Source: Blasia pusilla | Lineage: Eukaryota | NCBI GenBank assembly: GCA_050084515.1 | Contig: CM114271.1 | Coordinates: 15,872,001-15,936,000, forward strand | DNA: 64,000 nucleotides | Direction of reading: 5' to 3' | In this document: in pieces, positions 4,801 to 45,930 of the stretch | Layout: each line of letters opens with the position of its first letter | Position numbering within the stretch: the first letter of the stretch is position 1 | Translations under genes and position numbers: made by a program | The notes under the pieces: generated by a model | Databases searched by the model: none | What the model saw: the letters and a program-made list of their open reading frames with translations, nothing else | Told to the model about the DNA's origin: nothing

Positions 4801-5287
4801 CTACCAGATTATAGGGCAACCTCTCATTCTAATGAGAGGTAGATGGGTTAGAGCAGAGTGGGACTCTAGGCGCCCATCCATGAAACGAGACGGGAAGGGT
4901 TTTCTCCTTGCTAACCTAAATGATAATGAGCCACTTCACCACCAGCCTTTTGTGTTTCCTTCACAAGTAGAGCAGGTTTTCTATGGAGATCCGTGTGACG
5001 GAGGTGCGTGGAGAGTAGTACTTAGGAAAGAAGCAAGGTCTCGCCGTAGCTTTGCATATTTGACAGATGTGAATTGGGATAAGGAGGAGAGTGATGAATA
5101 CCATGGCTTGGAGGTGACTCCTTTTTTGGAAAGACATTTGCCCCATATCAATACTCTCGATGCCATTGAACTAAATGATGCTGAAGTTGCCATAGCTAAG
5201 TCAGATTTTAGCCAAGTACATGCAGTGGAAGTTTTGCAGAGCATGGACAAGGATGTGGATGAATCAGATCAGGATCTTAGCGATTAG
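1900..5287 (+). pseudogene. CACTA TnpD/Tnp2-family transposase pseudogene
   Basis: N-terminal CPCNEC; IHACPQGCVLY; LSLDGVNPF...STWPV; WTINDYPAY; DVMHVEKN; KSHDYH; CGPIACRWMYPFERYM; QPFVFPSQVEQVFY. Premature stop at 3421-3423 and an apparent internal deletion near 4020 between KSHDYH and CGP. Confidence 0.93.
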
Positions 5288-5425
5288 ATTAGGATCTCAT
5301 CGATTAGATAAACTAGAAGTCCATAGTTGTGCGTGTTGTATGTATGTGTTTTTTAGTTCTTGTCGAGTTGAACCATTTGATAAACATTTTTTTCCTTCAC
5401 ATAACTTGAGAGCTATATTTGTGTA

Positions 5426-8400
5426 GGGATATGGAGCCAACTATTGCAAAGAGTGATTATTCCAATAGACAAGATGAAGTAGGAGTCCAATGTGAGAAGA
5501 ACCAGAAATATAGCGTGCATAGTCATGAGATGACAAAGGGAGTTGAGACCTCAAGAGACTCCAACCATGAGGTCCATGATGTAGATGCTCCCATTGATAA
5601 TGGGGTGGAGGATACTAGCACAGCCTACGAGAAGAATCGTGAATGTAACATTCAGAGAAGGAAAGAGATGGAGAGAGTTCTTTTTCAGAACTGCCAATTG
5701 ACGTATGTTTTCTTGGCCTAGTGTATATGGTTGGGGGATCCTTCAGTGGATTTAAGTTAGTGCAAGTAAATTTCATAATGATTGCTAGTGAAATGAGGAG
5801 TACACATGATTACTCATGGCGTGGAATGAATCATTTCATGTTTATTGAACTAATTGTGAAACATGGATAGTAACGGAGCAATTCAAAAAAAGAGGCAACT
5901 AGCAACAAAGATTCATATTGCTCCAAATGTGGTAAGCCTTCACCGACAAAGTGCATGCCTCAAGAAGACCCTAAATATTCCAGATTTCTCAGATAGGAAA
6001 TCTGAGAAGGAACCAATGGGATATATATCAGATGAAGACAATGTGGCCGGTTCAGATTCACTTGATCGTGTAAGTACCGGATTATGGGATTATCCATATT
6101 ATTCAATTGATTGACGTTGATTTGTAGTAGAAGATACTTGATATGAGTATTATTTCTATGATCCTACCTTGTTGGCTGATTAAATTGAGCTCTTTATTGT
6201 GTATAGGGATCAGAATGTATGAAAGGAGTCCATATTGATTGTGTAGAGAGACAAAGATCCCAAGGCCAACAAGATGTTGTTAAAGACAGGATGCATGTAC
6301 ACCCCCCTCGACGCTTAGACAGGGACAATATGTCCCATGAACCTCCATGGGAGACTCGGAGTTGGAGAGGAGGCCACTTGTGGAGTGGTCCTCCTTGGGG
6401 TGGATGGTACAACCAACCCCCTCCCAATGTGTATGGAAGATCTTGGAAGCAGGACTCTCAACCCATGGATGAGAGAGGTCTATATGGAAGAGATGCAGAG
6501 AGGTACGTTGGGGGCATGTCTAGAGATAGATTTATGTGGGACCATTCATCCCCCTGGGGTGAATCACAGAGACTAGGTTCCTACAACCATGTACCACGTG
6601 TTGAAGTAGAAGATTGGAGGCATGGAGAGCACGTATATCCCTTTGAGAGTCACCCTCAATGGCATTTAGTGAGTACTTAATTCGATTCATTTTTTGACAT
6701 TTCACATGACTTTACTATGTCTTAATGTATTTGTGATTTATTCTCCTCTAATATTCCTCTGCATGAACAGGTTCCTCCTCCATGAGAATTGGAAGGGCCC
6801 TCGGTAAGGTGTTGAATTAAGTATCTTTGCCATAACCTATAATTGGTTATGATTTCAGATATCTTCCATTCAATTGTAGATTTAAGATATATCCAATGGC
6901 TTCTTCTTGTGTAGATGTTTAGGGGTCCACCGAGTAGAAGTCAATCATGTATGACTCCCACTGCATTAGAAAACACTCCATCTACAGGTGGCGGGATTTA
7001 CACTTTTGGAGGTGGGGATTTAGATATCTTATTCTACATTTCTGAATTTTCTTGAAGATGTCAAGTGGATGTTGGTTCCCATCTCCCCTTAAACCTCTCC
7101 TTCCCACAGTGAATTTTTATAAATGAACTTCTCCTAAGTATTTAGTAGCATAGAGTCCTAACACCTTTCTAATTATATGATGAGTGTTCTGATGTGAAAG
7201 AAGAGAAGCAAGATCTGGCCATCGCCGTACAAAGCGTGACCTTTGGAACAAAGAGACCTCAGAATGGAACAAGGCCCATCTTTGATCCAGATGTGAGTTA
7301 TTGGAGACTGGATGGGCCGATAATGTGATCCTCGTTATGAGGCATGGTTGAGTGATGTAAAGGTATGGACGATGCGTTACTTAGATATCTCATGTGTGGA
7401 CATAGATAAACAAGATAGTATTTGCATGGCTACCATCCGCAATCATATGGACATGCCTTGGGAGTATGTTGGTGCATCCAAGTTAAACCCGGATTTCTTA
7501 AGGAAGAAAATGTCTTCTTTACTAAAGACTGAGAGATACATTCTAAAGACTTACTTCAAGAGCAAGGGGGGGGCATCGTGCGGTGAAATGTCACCCCAAT
7601 CATAAGCCTGTAGAATGGGAACGCCTCATAGACTACTGGTTGTTCGACGCAGCCAAGATGAAAGCTAAAGTAATGAAATCGGCAAGGGGCAAGGTGGAGA
7701 ATCCGAATCCCATTGGACGGTCAGATGTTCATGGTGTAAGGATTGGGGTTGTAAGTGTTCTTTGCAACTCCTTATTTGAGATGATGTTCCTTACTTCCAC
7801 TATAACCTTATTGTTAATCTACTTCAATACACAACTATGGGTCCATTCATTCCAACCAAATGGAGTAAAGAAAGATTAAACATGTACTTTTTTTTTTACA
7901 TTAGGTACATTTCTTAGATTCTTAAAATATTGAGTTGGCTTGTAGGAGGGGGGAACAATAGAAACTCAGAATGAGAGGGAGTTGCAAAGTACTACACGTT
8001 TCAGTTGGTCCATCCTTGAGTGGTATAGCATGGAATATGAACCATTCATGTTACTTGGAAGTATTTCTTTAAACCTGCTTGTACATTGATAGGCTAAATC
8101 ATTATACCCTCTTCACTATGTCTTTGTGTTTTGCAGAATGCCGTGGACTCACAAGTTACCAATCAACTAGAGGTGCAAAGCAACGATGGGTAGAGGATGT
8201 AAAGCTTTTAAGGTATGAGTTAAGTTCCACCACAGCAGAATTAAGTGGACAGATTGCAAATGTGGTCCAAATAGTTGCAGATCTTGCACGGAGGACAGTA
8301 GGGGCAGAGGCTTCCAATGCCCACTCAACACCGCGCATGACGAAGTCTAAAGTGCAAGAAGGTATGTCCATTTGTAAGAAATCATTGTATGCTTGGGAAA

Positions 8401-10280
8401 ATCCTCATTTGAGTATTTGTTATTGTCTTATGTACTTCAATACACAACTATATGGGCAATCTTCCAACCGGAAGGTAATTTCTTAGTGTTATTTCCATGC
8501 TCTTGTGCTTGCCTTGAATTCAACAATGTGCTTGATTTATAAATCGTCTATGAAGATGTGGGTGTGGGTATAACAAGAATGAGATAAGTGTCGTTACAAA
8601 ATGTAGATCCCCTAAGTGGCGGCTCAAGTGATGGAGAAGCCACACATAAGGGCCCAGGTACAATATAGTTAGGAAATTCAAGTAATCAGATATCTCCAAT
8701 TCTTAGATTTCAAGTTAGTTATTGAGATTTCAGATTACTTAATTAGGTTAGTTACTTAAGATGGACTTCACATATTGTTACAAGGAATCAAAAGATATTT
8801 GCTCCCTCCATCAAGTTAGGTGGAGAGGCAAGCTCAATCCGCCAATGTATTTCCTAAACTTTCCTAGTCACACGGCTTTTGAAGTGTAGCTCAAAATTAA
8901 TGGCACCTACATATTTACAACAAGAATGTGCTCTAGTTCATTAAGAGAAACTAATGAATCTGGATTCATACTTGTGTAGGAGTGTGCATGGTAACAACTC
9001 CTTTGATTCATATGTCTCCGAAAGGTATGCAATGTGGATATTGGTGCTCGAATTTGTTTTCTACCTTTCCTTTATTCAGGTATGATACCAAATAATGGTT
9101 ACGATGCTTCATCTTATGTGACTTCATATTCAATCGATTGGACATGCAGGAAAGATAGACACTATGCCTACATTCAAAGATCCTTTGAGTGGTTGCTCAA
9201 GTGATGGAGAGGCCACATTGGGTCGGAAAGGTATCCTAAACTCTTACCTTAGTCCATGTTTTTTTACAGTATCTTTAAAGCCAAAGTGGGAGTGGAAAGC
9301 TTACTCATAAATGAGAATATTGATTTTGCTGCAATTTGAAGTTGTCCATGGACTTTTTTTTCACTTTCTTCTAATGCTCTTCAATGTTTTCCAGTAGGAA
9401 ATGAGAAGATTATGAGCCCCCCGATGAAGCCGGGTGGAGAGGTGAACTCCAACCGTAAGGGTAAGTTTTCTTCTACATGCTCTCTTACAAAAATTGGTAA
9501 GAGTTTAAGGTTCTCCTTAATGGATGATTTTTTAAGGTTTTAGCAATCTGATCTTTTTAGTGTGGAAAATAGCACGTATTCAAATCTTGAGGCATTTTCT
9601 GATTGATGTAAAAACATTTCAGATCTTGATCGCTATAAAAAGAGTTCAAATCTTTCAAATATGATCATTGTCTTCTATGATTAAATCTGGAAAAAGAATT
9701 ATGTATGTAGGGGCACAAAAGAAGAGGAGGACTCAAGAGATTATGCTAGAAAAGAATCTTGAAGATGGTTTGCTAGTGAAACCATCTCCAATGAAGAAGA
9801 ATTCTACATCCAAGGTGCACAGCGAGCCTAAGTCGAGCGGGGGGAGGCAAAAAAAAAGGTAATTGCCAATGCTCATGTCATTTTCAAGTATTAGTGTTTT
9901 TTGTAAGCTTGCTGCTTGTTTTTTATATGACATCTGAAGACATGTGTGATATTCCCCATTCAAGTTAGAATCTGATTGGGAACCATTTAATCATACTTTG
10001 ATCATGCACTTGTAGATAGGCGATGATGTCTCCTTCATAGAATACAGAAATCCTCGCCATATACTTGCTCATGATAACTTGGATGTCCGGTCGCGATAAG
10101 TGTCATGGAAAAGACATTCCAAACGGGGTTATGCAGGTCACAATCCAAAGTGTTTTGGATCCGGAGTATGCGTTATGGCAAACTAATGAGGGGGACGATC
10201 CCTCTCAACGAGTATTAGGGGATGCAATAGGAACAAATGTACTCAGGCCTGAATTGAACTTGAAGAAACGGGTAGATTAA
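5426..10280 (+). pseudogene. CACTA ORF2 (TnpA-like), multi-exon, degenerate
   Basis: Many short AG..GT-bounded exons. WERLIDYW...KMKAKVMKSAR (7583-7750) resembles the plant En/Spm Transposase_24-type region. The last exon KCHGKDIPNGVMQVTI...VLGDAIGTNVLRP resembles the C-terminal domain seen in CACTA ORF2 proteins. Confidence 0.65.
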
Positions 10281-10759
10281 AGTTTTTCGTTGCTTCCTTC
10301 ATGTTTTTGGAAATAGTCGTAGCAAAGGAGATTTTTTGATCCATGAAGCATTTTAAATATCACCTATTCTGCCAAAAATGAGATCAACTCATATGCTTTG
10401 TGGTCAGATTTTGTGATCAGATATAATATGGTCAGATTTTGTGATCAGGTGTTAGTAAAATGTGGTTCGTTGAAATTTGATTCCAAGTTTTATGGGTGTC
10501 AATAGTATTGCTTCTTTTATACTTTGGACTTCAAGATGAAAAGTAGTATATACAGATACTTAAAGAGTTCAGATATGAGTCTACATATCATAAAACTCTA
10601 CCTATAAACTTATGGATACTACATTCATTTGTTCCCATATCAGAAAATTGAGTCTTAAAACTTCACATATTAGAGAACTTCAAATATAAGTGCATTTTGT
10701 GCACTTACATATCTGAACTCTTTTAGTTTTACAGATCTTAATTCTTTTGGTAAGACCCA

Positions 10760-11951
10760 TTGTATGACTTCTAAGCATAGGACAAAAGGACATGCAATCA
10801 TTGAGCAGAAATGACTCATATTATATGATTCTCATAGTCATTTGATTTAATAATAGGCACTCCATTTAGAGTAAAATGACTCAACTAAATGACTCCATTT
10901 TGCAAACCATGATTTGGAATGACTAGTCATGACTTATCATGACTCACTTCTATATCTTGGCTATCATGGACTACATATAATGTGATGACTCCATTGTTCA
11001 AATAATGACTTGGCATGATTAGTAATGACTTGCGAACACTGACCATGACTCATCTTTAATGACTTGCCATGTAAAAATATAGATTATTCCATGACTCATG
11101 AACTACCACTTATGACTCCATCATGACTACAACACAATAAATTATTACTCGTGCTATGACTACACTCATGACTCAAGCAAGTCGTTCTTTATGTATTAAA
11201 TATGACTACATTATTCAATTAGTGACTTGGATTGACTAGTCATGATCTATGATGACTGATGATGACTTAACTTTAATGACTAGCCATCTAGAAATATTGA
11301 TTAATTTTTGACTCATGAACTACCACTTACGACTCCAACATGACTATAAAACAAAAACCAATGACTCAAGCTAGTCGTTCTTTATGTATCAAATATGACC
11401 TCATTATTCAAATAACGACTTGGCATGACTAGTCGTGATCTTTGATGATTGATCATGACTCATCGTGGACTATGAATTATGACTCCACCATAACTACAAA
11501 ACAAAACATAATGACTCATGCTATGACTAGGATCATGACTCAAGCTAGTCGTTCTTTACGTATAAAATATGACTTCATTATTCACATAACCACTTGGCAT
11601 GACTCGTCATGACATATGATCACTGACCTTGATTCATTAGGACTATCAATTATGACTCCACCATGACTACAAAACAAAATAAATGACTCATGCTATAATT
11701 AGGGGAATGACTCATCCAAGTCATTCTTTATGTATCAAATATTACTCACACTAAGTAAAACGTGTATCATCCACGTCACTGAAATTAATGAAGTCATGTA
11801 CACAATGACTCAAGTGGTGCGTAGTCATGAGACAAAAATGAGTTGTCTTTTATGATTGATGCAATCATCAGTCACCGTGAGTGATGTCATGTATAATATG
11901 ACTCTTGTCAATCATATGATGTAGTCATAAAAATACCTTTTCCTTCTAGTT
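10760..11951. repeat. CACTA 3' subterminal repeat array (ATGACT/AGTCAT motifs) and degenerate TIR
   Basis: Dozens of (C)ATGACT motifs in direct orientation, with inverted AGTCAT increasingly frequent in the last ~200 bp; ~175-190 bp higher-order units between ~11000 and 11750. Confidence 0.85.
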
Positions 11952-12258
11952 ATGCTTAAAAATTGACGAGCATATTCACGGCAAGAGGATGTCCCTAGAT
12001 ATCAAGAACTTTGGAAAATCTCAAACTTTAGGGGTAAAAGAAAGACCCAGAATTCTAGCTTAGGGATAAGCAAATTTAATCCCAAATTAAAAAAGATTGC
12101 AATAACAATGGAATACTTAATACCCAAACACTCAATAGGTCCTCATGTCAAATCTTCCTCCTCCGTAAATGGGCTTCTTATTCTCCAATTTCAAGAACTT
12201 CCACTTCTTGATTTTCACCAATCATGATAAGTAAGAACTACCTTTGATTTCACCACCA

Positions 12259-13262
12259 TGTCGTGCGCCTACTCTCCTCAAACGTCAATCTCAGTATTGC
12301 GGAAGCGTACATTCAGTAGGACACCCTCTCATCGCCAACTTGCACCCAAACGCACTAACATTAGTTTGGCTTTGGGTCAAGCGGTCTTCCAACCCACCGA
12401 GTCCTCAACTTGGCACCTCATCAAGCCCAACCTTCCCTCTTTCCTAGGTTCCCAACACGGGCAAGTCTTCCGAGACTTGGGACAGACTTTCTGGTTAGTC
12501 TAGGCACCTAAAACGGCGTTTGCGTGCCTAGCGGTCCCAAGTGTCCAGCAGACATTGCATGAGTCCCCAACCAAGACTCAACAATATGAGTTGTGAGTTG
12601 GAATCCAATAGGGACCTCCAAAATCCACTCTATTGGACTTAGTTCGGGTTTTGAATCCCAACGCCAAACTCTCTATCTGTTCTGTGCCCTTGAGTCACCC
12701 CGTGGTGCTCAAAAGTGGAGTTCGAGTCCCAAGCACCCTTGGAGACCTTCTCCCTTACTAGTAGTCTTGGAGATCTGTGGGGTCCCCCCACCTTTTGGAA
12801 GGAACTCTGGACCTTTCCTTTTGGCCCTCAACTCGACTCCCTTTATAGTCATTTTGGCCCATATCTCGGCTTTTGCTTAAGCTTTTTCCAAGATCTTTGG
12901 TGCGTTGGAATCGACTCTGCATAAGCTTTCCAATGCTATCTATTTGTCTTGAATGCATCTTAGAACTAAAAGTTATGGGCAGAAGTATAGTCGGAAACTC
13001 CAAACGCTAGCTACGTCCCAAGTCCGGTTCTCACCCCTTGGCCACGTTTCCTTCCGAGACTCGACTTTGCTTAAGTACATGTTTTTTGTTTGGTTTCGGT
13101 TTCCTAGTCGCAACCATAAATGCATGAAACACTTGAAATTCTCACCGCGTTTGTGTCTCGTACTTTTGTTTCTCTAACTCCAAAGCGCAAACCATCCTAG
13201 CGTGAGCTCGCTAGAGTTTGGATGTTCCGCTTGCCACTCGTTTGGTTATGAGGGTCGCGAAA
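12259..13262 (-). mobile_element. Isolated ~1-kb LTR (same family as 59153-60150)
   Basis: Collinear end-to-end similarity with 59153-60150 (TGTCGTGCGC(C/T)TACTCTCC ... TTGGTTATGAGGGTCGCGA). No matching TSD found. Confidence 0.85.
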
Positions 13263-17299: not shown

Positions 17300-18000
17300 T
17301 ACCACAGTCAACCGCGGTCGATCATTGTGCGTCACTACCTATGATCGACGGCTCGAATCCAATATAGAATCCACCAACAAATCGGAGGGGCGCTCCACTC
17401 TCGCATAAGCCCTCCGCAACACCTCATGTGGTACCAAGTTGGTCCACCAAAGACGCGGGCGGTGTACTCTAGAACCTACACTCGTCGCATCTAACAACAC
17501 TGCCGAGCCGATCCATGCGCGCACCTCTTGTGCACTCATCACCATGCGGGACCTCAAATCGCCCAAAATTGGCACATCTCCAAAATGTATGCTAGAGAAC
17601 AAGAATGATGCTCTTATAAATGTCACAAGATCCGCATCATCTCCCAAAATAACCTGGACCAAGTGTCAGCTAACTCGCTACCTCGTCCAACACTCGATTG
17701 GCCCTGACACGGCCAACCAGAAATGACCAAATCTATGGTCCCTACCCGCTCCAAGTTGTGCGCCCCCAACAATGAAATGTCCCTTGGTAGGGAACTCTCG
17801 TAACCCTGAATGGCGGACGCACACAACAAGTCGGGAAAACGGAGGCGTAACAGTGCCACATGGTGAAGTGAAGTGCACCTTGCAACATCATTAATCTCCA
17901 CACATATGTACTAGTGCACGCACACTCCACCGTGAAAAACAACAGCTAACCCAGTGCTGATCCCTCCAAAGAGATCCAACAGCCAAATACCCTCCTCTAG
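17300..18000 (-). pseudogene. C5 cytosine DNA methyltransferase domain (DNMT3-like), motifs I-VIII, retroelement-encoded
   Basis: Manual translation: LLDLFGGISTG (I), VEIND (II), RDI (III), IDLVISGWPCQGQSSVG (IV, catalytic PC within GWPCQ at 17704-17718), YILE[frameshift]VP (VI, presumed ENV), HRPRLWWTNL (VIII). Interrupted by TAG/TGA stops. Confidence 0.9.
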
Positions 18001-23409: not shown

Positions 23410-24972
23410 TGATTTTATAGCTCGTGATCACAACTCCATTTTGCTAAAAACTTTGCAAAAGTGCTGCAAACGCAACTTGGGAAAGTTGGACATGATGAAA
23501 AATGAAAAAACCTTCTTTTCATTGAAGGTTTAGTGGTTCGGGGCCAAAACGTACTTACATATTTTTGAGGTTTTGTTCACAACTCAATTTTTGTTGAAAC
23601 TTGGCAAGAGTGGAATATGCACCTTGGAAACCATGTAGAAAAACTTTCAGCTCAAGATGGGAAAAAAGTTAGACAAGGTGAAAAATCAAAAGACTTTTTC
23701 ATTCAAGGTTTAATGGTTCGGGTCCGAAAAGGACTTAGTAATTTTTGAGCTTTTTCTCACAACTCTAATTTTCCTGAAACTTGGCAAGAGTGTAACATGC
23801 ACCTTGGAGACGATGTTGGCCAAATTTCAGCTCAAAATATGAAATTTGGTGAAGATGAAAATTGACAAAAACCTTATTTTGATAGAAGGTTTGATGGTTT
23901 GGGTCCAAAATGGACTTGCCAATCTTTTAGCTTGTGGTCCCAACTGCATTTTACTGGAAACTTGCCTAAAATGCTAGATGCATCTTGGAGACCATGTGGT
24001 CCAAATTTCAGCTCAAGATGGGAAATATGGACAAGGTGAAAAATCATAAGAACTTCTTTTCATTCCAGGTTTAATGCTTCGAGTCCAAAAAGGAGTTAGT
24101 AATTTTTGAGCTTTTGCTCACACTCCATTTTGACTGAAACTTGGCAAGAGTGGAACATGCATCTAGGAGACCATATGGGCCAAATTTCAAGTCAAGATGA
24201 GAAATTTGGACAAGAAGAAAAATGAAACAACCTTATTTTGATAGAAGGCATGATGGTTCAAGTCCAAAAGAACTTGCCAATTTTTGAGCTTTTTGTCCCG
24301 ACTCCATTTTGATTCAAACTTTGCAAGATTCCTAGATGAACTTTGGAGACCATATTTGTCCAAATTTCAGCTCATGAATGGAAAGTTGGACAATATGAAA
24401 ATCATAAGATCTTCATTTCATTAAAGGTTTAATGGTTCGCGTCCAAAAAGGGGTAAGTAATTTTTGAGCTTTGCTCATAACTCCATTTTGATTGAAACTT
24501 GGCAAAAGTGTAACATGCACCTTGGGCACTAGGTGGGCCAAATTTTAGCTTAATATGAGAAATCTGAACTACATGAAAAATGAAAAAACCTTATTTTGAT
24601 AAAAGGTCTAATGGTTCAGGTCCAAAAAGGAATTAGTAATTTTTGAGCTTTTGCTCACAACTCCATTTTGATTGAAACTTGGATAAAGTGTAACATGCAT
24701 CTTGGGCACTAGGTGGGCCAAATTTCAGCTTAACATGAGAAATCTGAACAACATGAAAAATGAAAAAACCTTATTTTGATAGAAGGTCTGATGGTTCGGG
24801 TCCAAAAAGGAGTTAGTAGTTTTTGAGCTTTTGCTCACAACTCCATTTTCTTGAAACTTTCCAAGAGTGGAACACAAACCTTGGGGACCATGTTGGCCAA
24901 ATTTCAGCTTAAGATACGAAAGTTGGTCAAGATGAAAATTGAAAAAACCTTATTCTGATAGAAGGTCTGATG
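23410..24972. repeat. ~180-bp tandem repeat array, ~8.5 copies, inside the hAT
   Basis: Anchor AAGGT(T/C)T(A/G)ATGGTTCGGGTCCAAAA recurs at ~23526, 23705, 23886, 24067, 24245, 24424, 24603, 24783, 24962; cut off by the retroelement starting at 24973. Confidence 0.95.
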
Positions 24973-26131
24973 TGTCACGACTTTTAGGATAGATCGGTGA
25001 GATCTAGTAGAGCGCCTTCATGAGTAGTGGAGGACAGGCTTAGTAGGTTGAGGATGATGTGTTGAGACCCCATAAAACCTGAGAGAGCAGGTTTCCCCTT
25101 CGTTTCGGCTCATTTGGAGCTATATTGAGGAACTTACTATTTAAGGTAAGAACCATTTTGAGTATATGACCAACTTTCTATTTTTGGTAAGATGCCTTTG
25201 ACCTTCTACATCAGGTCAAGAGCCAAGGAGGTGACTTGGGAGCATAGGTTACCAGGGAGAGAGCTTGGGAGAGGGGAGGGGTATACCTCATGGAGAGAGA
25301 GCTTGAGAGGTTATTCTCTCTTTGTTGAACCTCTTGGCATGAGATGGAGGAGCTTTGGTCTTGCTTGCCTTGTGTGTGTAACCCAAGTCTCTCATTAGGA
25401 GAGTGGGTTTGGTTTGACATTGAGAGAGACATGTGAGAGTGCACACATGTGAGAACTATGGTGTTGTGAGAGAGATTGGATCTTATTTTACAAAGAGAGA
25501 ATGAGTAAGTGAGAGAGCTTCATGGGGAAGCTCGCTGGTTGCTCGATGTTTGGTGCAGGTTGGGAGACCGTGTTGCCTGCTTCATGGCTCATGGGAGTGC
25601 TCACCAGAGCAAGATCCGTGCGAGTTTGCAGTTTTGCTTTGCTGAGTTTTTGTACGGGAGAGTGGCACGCGGAAGCGCTGCCAAATTTTCGATATAATTG
25701 AGTATGGGGGCGGGTTGCTCCATGCTGGTGCTCTCGAGAGCACCATGTAGCTTGCTGATTTTTGTTCTCATAGGTTTTACATTTTCGTTGGTAGAAATCA
25801 GCGCGGAAGCGCTGCCAAATTTTGTGTAGGAGAAAGAGACATTGGGCTTTATGACAGTCCCCGCCAATTTTTACTGGAATGTTCAATTCCAAATATTTTT
25901 TATCATTATTGTAGATTGTGAAGCTATGCACACTGTGCAACAAACGGTGCACAACTTGGAGTTGCAAGAAAAAAGTTATGGTTAATCTTGCAAAAATGCC
26001 ATTGCTAGGCGATTTTTAGGGTTAAATTATTCAAACCCTAAACCAGCCGGCGGCGAACGTCGCCTTTGATGGTCAACCCTCATCATCATGGTCAACCATC
26101 ATCGTCAATGGTCCGCCATCACCATCAACTG
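24973..26131 (+). mobile_element. DNMT-Gypsy copy 1, 5' terminal repeat A and leader (continues at 35772-35964)
   Basis: Begins TGTCACGAC; collinear with 61481-62650 and with the reverse complement of 34650-35771; interrupted by copy 2. Confidence 0.88.
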
Positions 26132-29100
26132 TGTCGTGCGCATACACATTGCTACACAACATACATGGCTATCACTGAAGAGGCGCATAAACACGCACGA
26201 TCCTATGCTAACTCATGGCATCCAAACAACGAGACAAGAACTACCAAAATATCTCTAATAAAACAAGATCCAATCTCTCTCACAACACCATAGTTCTCAC
26301 ATGTGTGCACTCTCACATGCCTCTCTCAATGTCAAACCAAACCCTATCTCCTAATGAGAGGCTTGGGTTACACACTAGAGGCAAGTAAGACCATAGCTCC
26401 GCTGCCTCATGCCAAGAAGTTCAACAAAGAGAGAATGAGCTCTCAAGCTCTCTCTGTCCTCCACTACTCACAAAGGCGCTCTACTAGATCTCACCGATCT
26501 ATCATAAAAGATGTGACAGTTTTTGTGCGCATACACATCGCTACACAACATACATCGCTTGTTACCAAACACACACACAAACACACACGATCCCATGCTT
26601 ACTCATGGCATCCAAACAACGAGACAAGAAGTACCAAAATATTTCCAATGGCCCCCCTAGCTAGTGGTTAGGTCCCTCTAACTCTAGATAGCCATCTATC
26701 CCTACCTATCATGACATACATCTCTCGGACGCTAAGAGCAAGAAGGCCGGGTGCTTATGTGGCCCCATCGTTAGTCGCATTCTTATCATCCATGTCATAG
26801 ACACAAGTCGGAATCTAGAACTACCTACTCTATGTACATCTGGGGCACATCCACCGTCCTTCAAGAATTATAGTGAGAGGTGGCGTCAAACATGCCATAT
26901 GCCATCCTCTCGAACACCCATCACAGATTAGCATAGTGGTTGCACAACGGGCCGAACCACACAACATACACCGCAAGCCTGCAGGAACTTTTGCTAAGCT
27001 TTGTTCAATTGTATCGTCAATGTTCGAAAGATGACATGGCGCACAGTTACGCATGTGGTCCTTCCAAACCATACCATCGCGTCCCTCCAATAAGAGAACT
27101 CCAGATGGCAAAACCTCACGCACTCTGAAGATGGTGCGCCCTACTGTCACATCCAACATCGTGGGTGCCGTCTGCTGCAAGTAGACATAGTCTCCTTGAT
27201 GAAAACTCCCGATAGTATGTCGATAATCACCTCCCCAAATAGTCGCATACCTCAACGTATCCTCATGTTGCGCAATCGCCAAATTCTCAAACGCCATGGG
27301 CATCACTCTCGGAAATAACTCAGCCCTCTTAGAACATGCTTGCATCCATACATAAGGGTCATCAAGGTTCAACACCTCACCAGTATCTTGACGAATGGCC
27401 GTTGGTAAATCAAGTTCTCGGCCATAAAGCAACAAGTACGGTGAGAAAGACGCTAAGGATGGTTGCCTGCTGAATCAGTATCCCATCGCCAACCATGGCA
27501 ACTGAAGGTCCCAATCTCCTAGGTGACCTCTCTGCAAGCCATACTTGCGTAGTCCTCTCTTCATCGTCCGTACAACCCCCCCGCTAGTCCATCCACCTCA
27601 GGATGATCTCGCGAAGTAGTGCGGTGGTTGATCAGTGCCTGATCACACAAGGCCTAAAACTCCCCGCGAAACTCTATACCCTGGTTTGTCAACATCTTAG
27701 CTGTTGCATTGTAATGACTCAACACTCGATCTAGGAAGGCATACGCAACTCCCTCACTCGCTTTGTCAAGCAATGCAACCAACTCTATCCACTTCGAGAA
27801 GTGCTTGAACATCACCAACACATAACGACTATGGCGCTCCGTCAAAGGCAAAGGTCCTGCAAAATCCAAACTCCATCTATAACCTAAACCCATGATCGGA
27901 AGTGGATGCAAGTGTGGAGTTGGAGCATTGAATGATGCTCGAACTTGATCACATACCATGCATCTGGTAAGAAACTGCTGAACGTGAGTCTGCATGCCTC
28001 GCCACCAATACTGAATTTGGAGCAAGCTGTACGTCCGCTTCACTCCAAAATGATCCAACTCCTCAAGGGCATGACGCACCAAACATGCTCTCTACGAAGG
28101 ATGAGGCACTACATGCACTCTACCATCCTCCCACACTCGCAACATATGTGTGCCCTCCCATAGAAACCGTGTGGCTCGTTGTAGGATCCAATCCCGCTCT
28201 CTAGAACCCACTGTGCTCGTGACGCTGCCAATACGCAGGTACTCCATGACCACTCCATCGTTGTGAATGTCTTGGCCACCTATCGTCTCCTCACTCGCCT
28301 TTGGATCTAAGAACTCCATCACACCTCGCCATCGAAGTCTCAAGAATCTGGCTCTCTAGCCAACAAGCCCAAATAGGCTGACGCATGCCATCCTGGAACC
28401 AACTCCTCATCACTCTCACCATGCCAATGAACTTAAGTTGCATCTCGGTGACTCGGGCATGGGTTATAGCTCAAACCATATGTATCTTGGTTTAGCGTCC
28501 CAGGTCTATGCACCATCTGGAAGTCATACTCCTGCAACAAAAGAGCCCACCTCGCAAGCTTCCCTCTAAGCTTGTCGGACTCCATCAACCACTTAAGTGG
28601 CTGATGATCAGTAATGATGGTAAAGGGATTGTCGAATAGATAACATCTGAAATATACGACAGCCCATATTGCAACCAAGCACTCACCCTGATACGAGCTA
28701 TACTTTTCCTCTGCAGCGTTGTTCAAGCGACTAGCATAAGCCACCACGAACTCTCTACCAACATGCTCCAATCGGTATGCAACTCAAAAGGATGACCCCT
28801 GATCGGTCTCCTCAATATGGGCGCAGACATCAATCTGTCCTTGAGCATCTGAAATGCTCTCTCTTGCTCATCCCCCCAGTGCCACTCCTGATCTACCTTG
28901 GTCATCAAGGTTAGCGGCTTCGCAATCCAATTGAAACCCTTGACGTACCGTCGATAGACGTTCGCCAATCCCATGAATGCACGAACTCGACTCACATCTG
29001 TAGGGCGTGGAATGCATGAAATAACCTCTACCTTTGTCTGTTGCACACCAAGGTGTATCGTATGATCGAAGTACTCAATCTGGTCATAGAAGAACTTGCA

Positions 29101-32100
29101 CTTGTTTGGATGTAGCTTCAGCCCATGTAACTACAATAGTCGAAACACCTCCTCTAGATGTCGCTCATGCTCCTCAACCGTGGCGCTAAATACTACGATG
29201 TCATCAATATAACACCTGGCAAAATCTAGACCTATCAAGATCCTATCCATGACCCTCTGAAACTCATCCGGGGCGTTCTTTAACCTGAATGGTAAGAACC
29301 GCCACTGGTACAAACAATCCTTCACGTGAGGATCAATGCCCAAAAATGTTGTCTTCTGCTTGTCCTCCTATCTAATAGGCAGCTGATGGTATTTGGCTTG
29401 CAAATCCAATGAACTGAAGACCTTTGCATGCCCAATCGCATCAAAGATCTCCTCAAGGGTGGGCATGGCATACCTTTTTGGCCTTTGTCTGCCGATTGAT
29501 CGGTTGGTATTCTCCACACATTTGCCTATCCGTCTAGTTGCCATCCACATCCTTCTTGGCGGGAATGATAGTGGCAGATGCATACTCTCCATGCAACATC
29601 TCCACTGGCTTGCTCCAACCAAGTTATGGCTCCTACTCTGAATCAGAGCCCTCTCCATGTCGCAGTATATGTAGGGTCGTCTGAAGATTGGCGTGTCACT
29701 CGACAACTCAATGCGGATCGCTTGACCCTTCATTGTACCCAAATCATGCATACTAAATGCAAAACAACTCCTATAACACCCAAGGAAATGGTGTATCCGA
29801 CGTCGCTCTCCTCCTGTCAACTTAGGGCCCATATCTGGCTCCCAAGTCTCCATCGTGACTATGATAGGACTCACCATAGCAACCGCAGACATTCGCGTCT
29901 GTGGTTGCTATGGTGCAATCCCGTCTCGGAAAATAGAACTCCCATCTCCACCTGTAGTACTCGGAACCATGCTCAATGTTGTGGCTATCAACTCTTGGCA
30001 TACCTGAAAAACATCCCAAGAAGTCCAAGGGTGTCACTCCCGATCATCCCTGGTGTGTCGATCTCCTCGGGTCTCGCCCCCAGCCATTTCCTCAACCGTC
30101 TTGGTAGGCATGGGGCTCACCAACGCAACAACTATGATCTGTCATCCTCAAACAACGCTGCTCAGCTAATCCTAAGCTGAAAATCCATGTCAAGTAGTTC
30201 AAGTCCATTGCCTGACCCAAGACATGGCATCATGATGCATCCGATAGTGACAGTACTGCCGTCACTCCTGTGGAGAATCCCATTTCTCGCTCTCGCTCAT
30301 CGACGTTGGGCTCTATCAACCGTTGTAGCTGGTCATCCTAAACCAATCCAGGTCTCGCCTCCTTGAATGCATGGGAAGCGGGAAAACTCACCAATGTGGG
30401 AAAGGCGGCTCGTGGCATGCCAATCCTGTTGACAATAGTCAACGGCGGTCGATCATCGTGCCTCACTGCCTAAGATCCACAGCCCGAATCCAATATAGAA
30501 TCCACCAACAAATCAGAGGGACGCTCCACTCTCGCATAAGCCCTTTGCAATACCTTATGTGGTACCAAGTTGGTCACCAAAGATACGGGCGATGTGGTCG
30601 TGAACCCACACTCGCTGCATCTAACAACATTGTCGTGCCGATCCATGCCTGCACCTGATGTGCACTTGTCACCACGAGGGACCTTGAATAGCCCAAAATT
30701 ACTGCTGCACGCGCACTCTAGCGTGCAAAACAACAGCTAACCAGTGTTGATCTCTCCAAAGAGATCTAACACCCGAATACCCTTCTCTGGGATGCACCAC
30801 ACAATCAGGGTGGTGTCTAAAGGGATCATAGCAGCACTCTTGCCTACTTGGGGTTCTTCTGACCCGTCACACTCTAGTGCAAATGTCTCACTCCACGTGG
30901 TCTGCACATGCTCAGTGGCTAAGCGTCGAAGCTCCTCAGACCATCCCCAAAGCGGCACCTCTCCTCCACGAACTGATGCGGCTACCATGACACTCCTCTC
31001 CATAGAAATGTCAAGAACAAGAGGATCCTCTCCATGGATATGTCCCTCAATCAAATCACTAGGCCAAGTGATGGCACTCCTAAATGTTGCTAAGGTCGCC
31101 ATCTCTTCTTGCTGTCGCTCGATCACTGCACCTGTGAATCGCTAAGGCGTCCATCACGTGACTGCCATCCTGGTCTGTAGGACGCTGACTCCTCCCAGTA
31201 ATCGAAGGAAAACCCCATCGGGTATAATAGTGCTCCACCAACCAAGACGTCGTAGGACTCTACATCAGTCATTATCGCCTTGGCTCACACCACGGACTCA
31301 TCTATGGGATGTCTCGAGCGAATCCTCACCACGACCTCCTGTTGGGTGATATATTGTGTGGTACTTGCTCCACCCAAGGATGTCTACATCCGGAATGGAC
31401 AACGCTCCAAATCAGCTCTTGTCAAGCCCAATCCTCTAAATGACGCTTTCCCCAACATCAAGGGTTGCGCTCTTGAATCCAACAAGACGCGCTGCGGACT
31501 AAAAGCTCTACCTCTAGGACTCACCAATTGGAAGACCTCTTCCTGGTTATCCACCAACACAATACTAGGAGAAACCATAGCACGCTCTATCGCGGGTCTA
31601 GCGGGCATCTCCGCTTTCCTAGCAGCCGCAGCCTACCGTGAATCTGACATGGACGGCCCGAGCATCCGCTCCAAGGGCAGGTCCGTCACCTCTGAACGTG
31701 ATGCAGGAACTCCAACTCCACGTCACATAGTGTAGCGGCTTGCCGAAAAACCTGGGCGGGCGTACCTCTCAACTTCATAACATCAGAAGCAGAAAATAAA
31801 GCAGCGCGGTACACAACGGTGGCCGCCCCCAACAACATGCTCAACACATGCCCCTCGTGAGCATCAGCAATAGGATTCGTTGCACTCGCTTCTCCCATCA
31901 CCTTCCATGCTTGCACACCAACAACATCACCAACTCTCTAGGAACTTTGATCAGGACCCATCGATGGGGTCCTCATCGCCTCAGACAACATGAAAGAGTG
32001 AGGAAGCCTAATCTGTTTCCTAGCTTGCCCTCGCTATGGATCCCACTCTACGGCTGCTCCACGCGTCACAACTACGGCGGCCTCCATTTGGGCAATCCCG

Positions 32101-35100
32101 CACATCCAACCGGGATCCTCCATGTCTCTGGCTGCTCCATATGATGTCAATGCCACACATCCGGCATCGAATAACCTCAATGCCATAGCGGCAATATGCT
32201 CCTGTAGATGATGTATGTGAGCAACCATCCCAGCCTCATGCCTGGGGTCTCCCTCGACGCGTCTAAGTGGTGGGACTCTACCTCCTCCACGGGTAGCTCC
32301 ATCACCCTGTCGGACAACTCCAGCTCCTCGTCCCCCAACGTGACCACTTGGTGCACGACCTCTAGCCCCACCCGGACCGGCTACTCGCTTTGGTGCCCTC
32401 TCTGGCCCTCGGTCCAGACGTAACTCAAGATGTAAACTGAAACACCTAGCGCGTGTATGACAATACCTCTGACAATAGTCACATTGATAACCTCTTGGTG
32501 CAGCACCATCTCCTCCTCCATGCTGAGGCATACGTCCATGACCCTGACGAGTGCAATTGTGTTGATGATGGGCTCCACCACATGACCAACAAGTAATAGA
32601 AGGCGGATTCTGCTGAGCCGCATATGAAGGCGCACGTCTCTATGGCACGGCCTCCCGGTATCCTCCCTGAGCTCGTGGTGCCACAGTCAACCTATCTCAG
32701 AGTCCATGTTGCTGCACAGGTGATGCAGAAAATCGTGACTGCTCTTGCCCAAAACCCATGGTGGCTACGCTCTCCTCCGCCATGTTGTGCTCAATATTCT
32801 TGGCAGTCCTAAAAACATCTCTCAAAGTAGGGGAGGTGTTCATAAGAAGCACTCCCTCCCGCACCCGTGTCTGCAGGGTCCGGTCCAACATTGCGTACCA
32901 TGACTGGATAGCCTAAGCCTCCGTCACCCCCTGAGTGACGTTGATCAACCGGTGTGAGCAAGTGTAAGCCTCACACAAACTCTCATCCGGGTGCCTCTGG
33001 AATTTGTGGATGCTCCGTAACTTCTCCGTCCGTACCCCTTGGTAGCTCGCCCTCAACTCAGCAAAGAACTCAACCACGGGGTTGAACTTGGGACAAACCC
33101 GACTAGATGGTGCAACTGCTCTAGTGCGAGTGACTCCTTCTAAAACATCACTAGTGCAAGAGGAAGTAGCCTCTCTTGACTCCTCCTCCTCATCTGGGAA
33201 CGGCTCTGTCCATGACACACAGTGTGGGTCATAGTAGAGTCGCCATGCCTCAATCTCCTGGGCATATATGTGGGAGAACTCATGTTAATCGTCCATGGGC
33301 GTCCCCTCTAAATGCTGGAACATACCGTTCCATGTTGTAAACGGGTTGAACTCTCTAGAGTTCCTAGCCCGCTGTGAGTCACACCAACTCCTAAACTCCG
33401 CAATAAAGTCGTGTAGCTCTACGCGGTCCTCTATCCCGGTCGTCCATCTCGTATGCCCAACTGGTAGGACCACTCAATATGTACGGTAGATCACTAACAC
33501 ACTCCTCTACACACTCACTCTCGTCTGAAGAGGACACAGAAGAAGATCGTGGTGGTCTCTCACATGGACACCCTCGAAACCTCGCACCACTCCGGGTAAA
33601 CCCTCCAGATCTACTCTCACGTCCATTACCTCGCCTCTCAAAATCGAGAAAGGACGCCGTGATGGCCCTGGTGCCCCTCTCACACAATCACTCTCTATCT
33701 AGTGAGTAATCCCTCAATTGCTCAAACTAAATATGCGACACTCAATCTACACTCTCTCATTGAGACGTGTGTTGTGCGGCAACAAGCAGCGTGGTACGGC
33801 ATATCAACCGATCTATGGTCTCAATGACAAACCATCCTCAACCCTGGACATCCCACACAGGTCTATGTCCCCTAAACCCATACATCATCGATAATACTAG
33901 CATCAGCACGAAACCCAATATCCCAAATAACTTCCCAATATGTGGAAATCCCTCACACGTGCAGGATAAGAGACCAGAATGGATAACCTGACAATAATGT
34001 CGATATCGCTCCTTGGCAACTGCAAATCTCGACCCCAACTTGGTTGTGAAGACAACTCCTCCAATCAGCAAGTCGTACTCCTCTTCTACTGACGCGGCTC
34101 AAACCTCCTCGATATGCGGTGCAGGTCCAACGGTCCGGTGCGGCACGGAACGGCTACAAACGGCACGGCACTCAGCGGCATACCCGCCTCAATCAGCAAT
34201 TCACATGCTCTGCACCTTAGTGAAGGAGCGGCTCTGCAATTGAGATGGTGCGGTGCGGCCATATGCGGCACGGCGCGGCAATCAGAGGTGCGCTGCAGTT
34301 ACGGGCATCACGGCACGGTACTTGATCATCGTCGAGCGGCTACCAATCCCAACATAGCAACATGAAATGAAAACTCAAACACCATAACCCAAGGTCACCT
34401 TCCATCACAGGTAGATGACAAAACTACGATGACGGTGGCGGCCAAACTAAAGTACATGGTGGTAGCCCAAGTCAGAAAATCAACGGTGGTCGTGGAAGAC
34501 CCTCCACTCCGTAATGGCTGCAATAGCAACCAAAGGGTGGACAACGGCCGAATGCGACTCTGAGCAGCACCAGACGATGGCAACGGCCGACAGTGGACCG
34601 GTGATGGTCACAATTGATCGTTGATGGTGTCGACGAACCGTTGATGGTGACGGTTCACCATTGACGGTGACGATTGACCGTTGACCGTTGATGGCGCGGC
34701 GGATGGTTTAGGGTTTGAACAAGTTAACCCTAAAAATTGCCTATGAATGAAAATTTTGCAAGATTCACCATAATTTTTTTCCCAACTCCAAATTGCGCAC
34801 CGTTTGTTGCACAATCTGCAGAGCTTCTCGATCTACGAGAGTGTCAAAAAATATTTGGAATCGGACATTCTTGTAAGACTTGAATGGGATTATCGTAAAG
34901 CCAAATGTCTCTTTCTCCTACACATAATTCGGTAGCGCTTCCGCCCTGATTTCTCCCAACAAAAATGTAAAACATATAAGAACACAAATCAGCAGCTACA
35001 TAGTGCTCCTGAGAGCACCGGCATGGGGCAACCTGCCCCCATACTCAATCCCTATCAGAAATTGGGCAACGCTTCCGCACGCCACTCTTCCACACGAAAA

Positions 35101-35771
35101 ATCGGCAAAGGAAACATCACAAGTAAGCGGCTCTTGCTCCGGTGAGCACTCCCATGAACCGCTGAAGGGGGAATACGATCCCCAACCTGCAAAACTAGCA
35201 ACTGACGAGCGAGCTTCCTCATGAAGCTGTCCCACTCAATCATTCTCTCTTTGTAAAATAAGATCCAATCTCTCTCACAACACCATAGTTCTCACATGAG
35301 TGCACTCTCACATGTCTCTCTCAATTTCAAACCAATCCCACTCTCCTAATGAGAGGCTTGGGTTACACACACAAGGCAAGCAAGACCATAGCTCCGCCCC
35401 CTTATGCCAAGAGGTTCAACAAAGAGAGAATGAGCTCTCAAGCTCTCTCTCCTTGAGGTATACCCCTTCCCTCTGCCAAGTTCTCTCCATGGTAACCTAT
35501 GCTTCCAAGTCACCTCCTTGGCTCTTGACCTGATGTAGGAGGTCAAGGGCCACTTACCAAAAATAGAAAGGTGATCATTGACTTAAAATGGTACTTACTT
35601 AAAATAGCAAGTTCCTCAATATGGCTCCAAATGAGCCGAAACGAAGGGGAAACGTGCTCTCTCAGGTTTCCCAGGGCCTCAGCACGTCATCCTCAAACTA
35701 TTGAGCCTGTCTTCCACTACTCACGAACGCACTCTACTAGATCTTACCAATCTACTCTAAAAGACATGACA
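26132..35771 (-). mobile_element. DNMT-Gypsy retroelement copy 2, near full length (~9.6 kb)
   Basis: Minus-strand ends TGTCATG ... GCGCACGACA; possible 4-bp TSD ACTG/ATTG (one mismatch); complete gag-pol domain series inside. Confidence 0.9.
26830..33700 (-). pseudogene. gag-pol pseudogene: gag-CCHC, aspartic protease, DNMT, RT, RNase H, integrase, PHD finger
   Basis: CDYCQRYCHTRARC knuckle (~32440-32490); VLLDSRAQP protease (~31480); VLDLFGEINTG and DNMT motifs IX-X (30180-30780); RT FSSLDLQAKYHQ and YIDDIVVF; RNase H FELHTD...VVAYASR...ITDHQPL; integrase HFG...CMVC, SLDFAGPLP; C4HC3 PHD. RT-RH-INT order is Ty3/Gypsy. Confidence 0.93.
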
Positions 35772-35964
35772 ATTGTCACTATCAACGGTCAACTATCATC
35801 GTGAACGGTCCACCGTCCACCATGGGCCGCTTTCGTCGCCTAGCGTTGGTCAGAGCCGCGTTCGGCCGTTGTCCACCCTTTGGTTGCCATTGACGCCATT
35901 ACGGAGTGGAGGTTCTTCCACGACCACTGTTGATTCTCTGACTTCCGCCACCACGTACTTTGGT
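35772..35964 (+). mobile_element. DNMT-Gypsy copy 1, remainder of 5' leader
   Basis: Matches 62655-62790; resumes the sequence interrupted at 26131. Confidence 0.85.
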
Positions 35965-44279: not shown

Positions 44280-45930
44280 TTGGGAGAAGCGAGTTTTAAT
44301 GAAGGACAACGTGTTATTTGAGATGTTTTACATGATAAGCGTGATCAAATATGCTTGAATGCTCCACCATCTTCAAAAATATTTTTCATTGATGGTCTTG
44401 GTGGCATAGGAAAGACATTCTTACAATTCTCTCCTTGCAAGTGTAAAGACTCCAAGAGGTATAGCTTTGGCTGTAGCATCATTTGGAATAGCTACTCTAT
44501 TGTTAGATGGAGAACATACCACATATTCATTCTTCAAGATCCCCATCAACCTCCATGAGAGTTCTACTTGCAAGTAATTATCTTCTATACTTAATGTCCA
44601 ATTTTAATCATACATAAATATTAATATCTCTAAGTATTGCAACTTTTAATTTATTTGTATTTGTTGTTTGTAGTTTATTGATCAATTGTGATGAGCGCGC
44701 TTAATCTGAATTGTGATGCTCATTATATGGGATGAAGCACCTATGGCTCATCATCATGGATTTGAGGCAAGAATTGCACTTTACAATGAATTACGATAGT
44801 GGTTTCTAATGAACTATGGAAAATACCATTTGGTGGAAAACTCATGGTATTTGGTGATAACTTTCATCAAGTCTTGTCTATTTTTGGTTATGGGGACCGT
44901 CAAAAAATCATCCTAGTCACTATAAGAAGGTCATTTCTATGGTCTTATGTAAAGATGATGAAGTTGATGACAAACATGCGAGTCTTCAAAGGTTGGAAGG
45001 TCATTTGTGTGCCAAACAAGAAGCTTTTGCTTACTTGTCATTGGAGGTGGGAAAGTGTTGTATACCTTTGCATCCTTATTTTGGAGAAGATTTTATACGA
45101 TTACCATTGAAATGGTTAGTAAGAATAATAAAATATTTGATCTTTTTTATATTATCTATGAAAATTCTTCCAATCAATTCCATAAGATTGACTTCTTGAG
45201 AGACACAACTATTTTGTCACCGTGAAATTAAGATATTAATGACATAAATGCAAACATATGTCATGAATTCCTACACGTGTAATACTTATTTTGTAGATTT
45301 CTTAAGAAACTACTTTTTTGAGATTTAGATATCAATAATTTCATTGCATTAATTCACGATATATTGGGTATATGAACACATATACCTTAGTGTCGACTAT
45401 ATTCCAAATAAGGGGATTAGCCATATATATCCGACGAAATTTCTGAACACATGATTGCCTTTTAGGCTACCTCCATATTATTTTTGTTTGAAGATTGATC
45501 CACCAATCATGCTCTTATGAAAAATGAATGGGTAATAGGGACAAGCAAACAAGACTAGAATGGTAATTTGTGGATTTATATGCAACACTACATAGATGTT
45601 GAAATTATTATGGAAAAGAATATTGGAGAGCAAGTTTCTATTCCACACATTTCATTGATTTCATGTGACTCCGGTTAGCCATTTGAGCTACATACGTTTC
45701 AATTTCCTATTCGTCTAGCTTTTGCAATTACCATTAATAAGTCTCAAGGTCAAGCTTGCAAAAAATAGGAATTTACTTGCCTTCTCTTGTATTCTCTCAT
45801 GGCCAAATGTATGTAGCATTATCTAGAGTAGGAAATAGGAGTTCCATCCACACTACAATTGGAAGTAATGAGCACTCAAATGAGGAAGATGACTACATGC
45901 AAAATGCAATATATAAAGAAATACTTTATC
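44280..45930 (+). pseudogene. Helitron PIF1-like helicase remnant
   Basis: FFIDGLGGIGKTF (Walker A), IWDEAPM, FGGKLMVFGDNFHQVL, QFPIRLAFAITINKSQGQ, GIYLPSLVFSHGQMYVALSRV. Confidence 0.9.

Follow-up and report, generated by a model that had tools for sequence, protein, structure and literature searches.

Split direct repeats, a self-primer-type binding site and a DDE integrase in a decayed Ty3/Gypsy element of Blasia pusilla

How can a retroelement that encodes a DDE integrase end in the split direct repeats A...B-A-B, and by which route would such an element be copied and inserted? The question is raised by a minus-strand element in a stretch of 64,000 nucleotides (nt) of Blasia pusilla DNA (assembly GCA_050084515.1, contig CM114271.1, positions 15,872,001 to 15,936,000 of the forward strand), which we call the window and whose own numbering is used throughout. 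The piece at 26,132 to 29,100 holds the 3' end of an old and decayed element that belongs to a Ty3/Gypsy lineage of bryophytes. We propose, as the probable reading, that in this lineage the repeat defined by reverse transcription, B-NN-A (NN being two spacer nucleotides), differs from the unit that is integrated, and that a head-to-tail junction intermediate is cut by the DDE integrase.

Self-comparison of the window together with a repeat search placed the element at 26132-35771 on the minus strand (9.6 kb), in the order A1, leader and open reading frames, B1, AC, A2, B2. Read along this strand, A1 (35255-35771), the 5' copy of repeat A, starts with TGTCATG and forms the left integration end. 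Between A1 and B1 lie the leader and broken gag-pol frames with RNase H, integrase (H2C2 and rve) and PHD domains. B1 (26521-26649), the internal copy of repeat B, ends with GCGCACAAAA and is followed by the spacer AC (26519-26520), which forms the centre of a near-palindrome ..ACA NN TGT... A2 (26260-26518), the 3' copy of repeat A, starts with TGTCAC and has an internal deletion of 256 nt corresponding to 35451-35706, and B2 (26132-26259), the terminal copy of repeat B, ends with GCGCACGACA and forms the right integration end. B1 and B2 were 85.6% identical across 125 nt (E about 4e-32), and A2 matched A1 at 92% over 197 nt and 83% over 65 nt. The element is nested in another copy of its family, a plus-strand one, whose leader it interrupts; that copy runs from 24973 to about 26129-26131, stops at the edge of B2 and resumes directly after 35771; the 5' end of this host copy (A plus leader, without B) is assigned to 24973-26127 and continues at 35776-35954. 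The coordinates and the A...B-A-B description given in an earlier note on this DNA were exact to the base.

The 5' ends differ from the 3' end. All three 5' ends in the window (35771 on the minus strand, 24973 and 61481 on the plus strand) pass from A straight into a shared leader without B, the third of them (61481-64000) running off the window, and none has a TGG-type primer-binding site (PBS) after A, just as the earlier note had reported. There was no third copy of B in the 64 kb, even by blastn at word size 7. That B might be a diverged homologue of the leader start was ruled out by comparison with the first 200 nt of the leader (z ≤ 1.0 in 6 of 6 comparisons). Thus the element does not end in the two identical long terminal repeats (LTRs) of a Ty3/Gypsy element, since its 5' end is A only and its 3' end is B-NN-A-B; it has the split-direct-repeat arrangement A1...B1-A2-B2, and with it the DIRS-like repeat structure of Gypsy-Dnmt3 elements.

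The start of B1 is marked by a polypurine tract (PPT). Directly 5' of B1 on the minus strand is a conserved block (GGACCTAACCACTAGCTAGGGGGG followed by the two nucleotides CC; 26650-26675) that is shared with relatives. As relatives we used 80 loci from bryophyte-derived metagenome contigs, collected by a profile search with the integrase-PHD region at 58-73% protein identity. The 24-nt core of the block, GGACCTAACCAC[CT]AGCTAGGGGGG, in which the tract ends ..CTAGGGGGG, occupies 26675-26652 in the window and was found with at most 3 mismatches in 65 of the 80 loci, in every case directly ahead of B1. B1 begins 2 nt past the G6 run of this conserved tract, and B is therefore the start of U3, where plus-strand synthesis should begin. 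In three families, dropping the two bases after the G run from B1 gives B2.

This border bears on the possibility that the 3' end is a one-off rearrangement, in which an otherwise conventional Gypsy element would have ended up with a tandem pair of 3' LTRs carrying different deletions and with 5' LTRs that had lost B. The earlier note had kept this alternative alive and had pointed to an A-like head, TGTCATGATAGG at 26716, ahead of B1. The window displays a single 3' end, and the 256-nt deletion in A2 implies that this copy has been rearranged to some degree, both of which suit such an account. However, what precedes B1 is the conserved PPT and not an LTR head: TGTCATGATAGG belongs to a 3' untranslated block that ends in the PPT (26675-26652) and is common to distant relatives. 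B was present at no 5' end examined, and the layout is shared by three families and by about 12 independent sites of other genomes, as described below. We therefore reject tandem 3' LTRs made by recombination, and consider a one-off rearrangement of any such kind highly improbable.

In the related contigs, loci that represent one insertion site in different samples were counted once, with sites told apart by their flanks, and the A...B-A-B sites were counted from motif maps instead of automatic clustering, as a loose motif also matched inside A. By self-comparison and motif maps, the A1...B1-NN-A2-B2 layout was found at about 12 distinct insertion sites in addition to the window. The whole layout is visible in L012/L064, L031, L034 and L062, and many more loci show the 3' end alone. 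It spans at least three families (the family of the window, the main moss-like contig family and the L020 family), so that the claim of a split-direct-repeat layout in an element with a DDE integrase extends well past the one copy on which it was made. Other copies do not turn out to have two conventional LTRs with PBS and PPT: B was found at none of 12 distinct contig 5' flanks and at none of the 3 window 5' ends. Across families, conservation is strong over the last ~45 nt of B. Viral contigs gave no match to the integrase-PHD protein or to a B motif, and a metagenome scan with an exact 24-nt B motif gave no match.

The opposite border, the end of A1, carries a signal of a different kind. 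A1 ends with ..TTTT(C), and is followed by ACAAAGAGAGAATGA in the window and by ACTCAAAGAAC.. in the moss-like family. In the window ACAAAGAGAGAATGA (35240-35254, minus strand) lies immediately 3' of A1 as a self-primer-type PBS, perfectly complementary over 15 nt to 35433-35419. The site it pairs with (35419-35433, minus strand; TCATTCTCTCTTTGT) would be the first bases of the predicted transcript, that is, the start of R, and a putative TATA-like motif (35459-35462, minus strand) is located 29 nt upstream of this predicted start; TATAAA occupies the same relative place in L010 and L012. The complementary site within A is 178-180 nt from the A end in the first two copies of the window and 169-176 nt in most moss-like copies. 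Of 16 5' ends, 12 had an exact complement of 9-17 nt, which in ten of them starts within 1 nt of the A end and pairs 156-180 nt upstream. In each of 4 tests the observed length of complement was reached by none of 2000 shuffles. The PBS sequences of the window family and of the moss-like family differ and pairing is kept in both, which amounts to covariation between families, and when the RNA was folded the 5' 15-17 nt were paired with the PBS in the minimum free energy and centroid structures of both families. Since A1 ends exactly where this PBS of 13-17 nt begins, which pairs with A about 175-180 nt upstream, the end of A is the end of U5.

In Tf1-type elements, U5 is followed directly by a PBS that can pair with the 5' start of the RNA made from the element itself, and the Tf1 primer is a multi-stem structure. 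Taken together, the pairing, the covariation, the predicted folds and the TATA-like motif support, at the level of sequence, a Tf1-like self-priming signature that would be independent of tRNA. The tRNA-independent route that the earlier note had offered as a possibility thus gains support, the sequence after A1 reading as a self-primer-type PBS and not as a tRNA PBS. In the moss-like family (L034 1934-1943 and equivalents) a second copy of the PBS-complementary word (TTCTTTGAGT) is present ~85 nt ahead of the end of A and may be a further pairing partner.

Candidates for tRNA priming did not hold. A tRNA-iMet PBS is matched exactly only once in the window (59139-59150, minus strand), in a different LTR element and not in the split-repeat family, and the complement of another candidate, TGGGAGTGCTCACC in a conserved leader block near 35156, was judged by eye to be unfit for a tRNA 3' end. 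ARAGORN found no tRNA gene in the window.

The ends at which the element joins its target are those of an integrase product. On the minus strand the 5' target-site duplication copy is CAAT (35772-35775) and the 3' copy is CAGT (26128-26131), matching in 3 of 4 bases. Among the relatives, 7 of 9 distinct insertions have perfect 4-bp target duplications, the exceptions being L005 (3 of 4 bases) and L062 (a damaged 5' end). Integrated copies start with TGTCA.. and end with ..GACA, so that the TG..CA termini and the short target duplication of Gypsy elements are both present. The 2-nt spacer between B1 and A2 is conserved in the relatives as AC, GC, AT, GT or TC, giving the junction ..GACA-NN-TGTC... 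At the other internal junction, A2|B2, the U5 end (..GTTTT) is fused directly to the U3 start (ATTAGAGAT..), a rule that holds in three families. The A2|B2 junction is precise at most sites, with a 17-nt filler at one and 1-nt variants at others, and contigs of the host genome contain further small A|B junction variants.

A second LTR element in the window (59139-60150 on the minus strand, and 12252-13260) has an exact tRNA-iMet PBS, TGGTATCAGAGC, and an LTR of ~1 kb that starts with TGTCGCG and ends with GCACGACA, resembling the start of A and the end of B. Because a conventional LTR element shares such ends, the A-start and B-end termini are ordinary integrase ends in this genome. This second element cuts another split-repeat copy inside its integrase at 60148.

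The coding region agrees with these ends. On the minus strand, a 214-aa open frame at 26833-27474 covers the integrase C-terminal region with a PHD finger (Pfam PHD, E=6e-10), and domain searches found the integrase H2C2 zinc finger with the start of the DDE core (rve) at 27654-28091 and the RNase H associated with the reverse transcriptase (RT), in two broken frames, at 28433-29130. The integrase-PHD frame is 75% identical to Marchantia PHD-type proteins; the other named sources among the 120 matches listed are Calypogeia and Sphagnum. Many relatives combine rve and PHD. The Pol order RT, RNase H, DDE integrase (H2C2 plus rve) was found in the window frames, in L064 and in the intact relative P0142, and the order of the whole polyprotein as read from relatives is gag, protease, Dnmt3-like, RT, RNase H, integrase, PHD. 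A Dnmt3-like C5 cytosine methyltransferase lies within Pol: PF00145 was detected in the window frame 17626-17910 (minus strand), which is part of another copy (E=2.6e-7), and L064 frame 5882-7285 matches DNMT3A chains (E=4e-8). PF00145 occurs together with RT, RNase H and integrase in relatives, and many annotated Marchantia proteins have PF00145 plus RT and RNase H. The element at 26132-35771 has lost ~340 nt of the Dnmt3-like region, at about 30700. The place of the methyltransferase differs between the relatives P0146 and P0142: in one the domain precedes RT, and in the other, which is more distant, it is found between RNase H and integrase. It has therefore moved within Pol.

These data argue against an element of the DIRS/PAT type that would move via a tyrosine recombinase and a closed circle, with the DDE integrase being incidental. 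The layout A1-B1-A2-B2 is what defines PAT, Toc and Ngaro in the part of the literature considered here (PMC4157794), which speaks for that alternative. On the other hand, no tyrosine recombinase domain was found in the window frames, L064 or the intact relatives P0142 and P0146, the integrase H2C2 and rve domains are present, and 4-bp target duplications flank the copies. To our knowledge, tyrosine-recombinase retroelements lack target-site duplications. We regard this alternative as very unlikely. Where the earlier note had likened the layout to that of PAT, TOC1 and Ngaro and not of Gypsy, the likeness stands for the layout and goes no further, there being target duplications and no tyrosine recombinase; a Gypsy element with DIRS-like repeats is already in print, in a figure legend on a Klebsormidium element (PMC5890265).

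How, then, would the element be replicated? Because B1 starts at the PPT and A1 ends at the PBS, the repeat expected from the rules of reverse transcription is B-NN-A, from PPT to PBS. The Gypsy arrangement, with a PPT directly 5' of the 3' repeat and a PBS directly 3' of the 5' repeat, is found for the repeat B-NN-A and not for A-B. U3 would then consist of B, NN and the first part of A, and R-U5 of the last ~180 nt of A. RNA would run from within A1 to within A2, and reverse transcription would yield a linear [B-NN-A]-internal-[B-NN-A]. Its outer ends would be joined head to tail (A|B), either through a circle with two repeats or through joining of the ends during integration. One internal ..CA/NN/TG.. 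junction, that of the left repeat, would be cut by the DDE integrase, which would insert those two ends, leaving the product A - internal - B-NN-A|B. Later recombination, B1 with B2 or A1 with A2, would give rise to the A...B form and to solo A|B units. The integrated form corresponds to the complementary DNA (cDNA) with its outer ends joined and opened at the junction of the left repeat, and it is from this that we infer the head-to-tail junction. Foamy virus and HIV-1 integrases are described as cleaving palindromic 2-LTR junctions in the portions of two reports drawn on here (PMC1180852, PMC1905944). A stronger form of the proposal, which we put forward tentatively as possible and somewhat short of probable, is that the integrase of this lineage ignores the cDNA ends and uses the built-in junction of abutted ends, a head-to-tail (circle-type) junction being obligatory for transposition.

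Forms other than the full one also occur. Contigs from three DNA runs of the same organism have the A end (35254/5) joined directly to the B start (26643-26649), several in run X1, two in X2 and one in X3. The mean depth in X1 was about 110,000-290,000 in the A and B bins versus 3,700-11,000 in the leader bins. These contigs, with A and B covered many times more deeply than the leader, mark A|B as a very common unit of that genome. Among the related contigs there are also an A...B form, at about 25-28 sites, and a tandem form, ...B-NN-A-leader, at 2 sites. Recombination between repeats can produce both forms from the full one, and short-read assembly may also collapse these repeats. The tandem form is seen in L002 (1140-1640) and in L025 (3218-3720; one site with L027), where the PPT, B-NN-A and then the leader of a second unit follow each other, one B-NN-A repeat being shared by two elements. 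In a further pair, L056 (7578-8263) and L070 (11605-11838), the 3' flank is common (8 kb, 95-99% identity) and the element bodies are 91% identical, with B-NN-A-B in one and B only in the other. The difference may reflect B1xB2 recombination; assembly collapse or conversion is also possible, and the pair was given no weight.

Several observations weigh against a head-to-tail intermediate cut by the integrase. The intermediate is deduced from anatomy: neither extrachromosomal DNA nor a circle junction nor cleavage was seen. If a circle were cut symmetrically, the mirror form A|B-NN-A...B should also arise, and it was found at none of the 3 window 5' ends and none of the 12 distinct contig 5' flanks. 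Assembly from short reads would probably collapse the mirror form; its absence means either that the left junction is preferred or that the model is incomplete, and a preference for the left junction may arise if the left repeat is double-stranded first. The A...B form (about 25-28 sites) is commoner in the contigs than A...B-A-B (about 12), and A...B could be a primary product rather than just a derivative. All copies seen are decayed, with no plus-strand frame of at least 500 aa in any of the 80 loci. Four of the 16 5' ends lack an exact complement of at least 7 nt at the expected place; we read these as decayed copies. An RNA run gave sense-strand reads along the element without any pile-up of read starts at 35433, and had no mapped starts or ends within the repeats; none of the sequencing runs listed as containing the stretch is recorded as RNA.

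The main rival to a cut head-to-tail junction is end regeneration in the split-repeat style of PAT and DIRS. Here A|B would be the true LTR-like unit and the transcript would run from within A1 to within B2. RT would make a linear A...B-NN-A-B, of which both trimmed ends would be restored from the internal B1-NN-A2, as has been proposed for PAT-type elements, and the DDE integrase would insert natural ends with no circle. In favour of this account, it explains why the mirror form is missing, the integrated TGTCA.../...GACA ends with 4-bp duplications resemble those of a normal LTR pair, and the ~45-nt conserved end of B exceeds what an integrase site alone needs. However, it assigns no role to a PPT exactly at the start of B1 or to a self-primer PBS exactly at the end of A1, and no primer site is evident after B. 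Moreover, A2|B2 varies among insertions in the manner of an end-joining product (the 17-nt filler and the 1-nt variants, with further variants in Logan contigs). We consider end regeneration unlikely, although far less so than a one-off rearrangement or a tyrosine-recombinase element, and continue to favour the cut head-to-tail junction as the probable route.

The surroundings of the element may be noted briefly. The window as a whole is plant DNA and of liverwort-like character. The leader of the family (34597-34760, 26005-26128 and 62600-62689) contains an inverted telomere-like pair, TTTAGGGTT ... AACCCTAAA, followed by tandem ~20-nt units (CACCATCAACGGT-like), and the nested insertion landed within this tandem array. 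A 180-bp satellite occupies 23481-24972 (8.3 units, ~77% matches), and the plus-strand copy was inserted exactly at its edge (24973). Elsewhere in the window are a CACTA-type transposase (Transposase_21, DUF4218) at 1885-4373 on the plus strand, a PIF1 helicase fragment of a Helitron at 44790-45107 on the plus strand, and an (AG)73 microsatellite at 191-337.

Split direct repeats are treated as a hallmark of tyrosine-recombinase retroelements, and the regeneration of such termini is still a paper model. By description, the closest known element is KnitGypsy-Dnmt3 of Klebsormidium nitens, which likewise has a Gypsy-type polyprotein with a Dnmt3-like methyltransferase in Pol and DIRS-like repeats; the legend of Fig. 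4c calls its repeats DIRS-like and its domains Gypsy-like (de Mendoza et al. 2018, PMC5890265). The same account places it in a charophyte alga and treats it as acquired in that lineage, and the main text section and the legend offer no mechanism and do not analyse the PBS, the PPT, the target duplications or the B|A junction (PMC5890265). The word PHD is absent from that paper (PMC5890265), whereas the bryophyte lineage has a PHD finger. K. nitens is not named among the matches listed for the integrase-PHD frame, nor among the 27 matches for relatives with PF00145. In the portions of the literature covered, nothing on this layout in bryophyte Gypsy elements goes beyond the Klebsormidium legend (PMC5890265). 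The element is a bryophyte variant of a barely described kind, and its border-by-border dissection appears to be new.

The bryophyte lineage shares single features with several other systems. Self-priming is predicted for some plant lineages in the sections of Neumann et al. (2019, PMC6317226) used here. The resemblance to Tf1/sushi elements lies in a PBS directly after U5 that is complementary to the predicted start of the own transcript, with no tRNA PBS. The bryophyte lineage differs from Tf1-type elements in that these integrate by the outer ends of two conventional LTRs, and the Tf1/sushi integrase has a chromodomain where the bryophyte lineage has a PHD finger instead. With PAT, Toc, Ngaro and VIPER, as far as the cited text describes them, it shares the order A1 - internal - B1-A2-B2, in which the internal B1A2 mirrors a joined-ends junction (PMC4157794). 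Those elements have a tyrosine recombinase, whereas the bryophyte lineage has a DDE integrase, 4-bp duplications, and repeat borders marked by a PPT and a self-primer PBS. In circle junctions of the IS3/IS911 type, abutted inverted ends are cut by a DDE enzyme. The retroviral 2-LTR circle junctions treated in the cited portions of two reports likewise place inverted ends a few bases apart, where a DDE enzyme can cut to free both ends (PMC1180852, PMC1905944). Cleavage of the retroviral junction is a side reaction on a dead-end product, whereas the bryophyte junction is built in, inherited in every copy, and would be obligatory.

For the bryophytes, a practical consequence is that an abundant family will be mis-annotated by standard LTR finders, which expect two equal terminal repeats and a tRNA PBS. 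Liverworts and mosses also appear to have the Gypsy-Dnmt3 type that is known from one charophyte, and the PHD finger joins the list of integrase C-terminal targeting domains. As each border of the repeats is tied to a known signal (PPT, self-primer PBS, integrase ends, target duplication), split-repeat replication becomes testable. If the stronger form of the proposal, with an obligatory head-to-tail junction, is true, the lineage would be a eukaryotic retroelement counterpart of IS-circle transposition, and would represent a living intermediate on the way by which LTR elements can give rise to the split direct repeats of DIRS, PAT and Ngaro.

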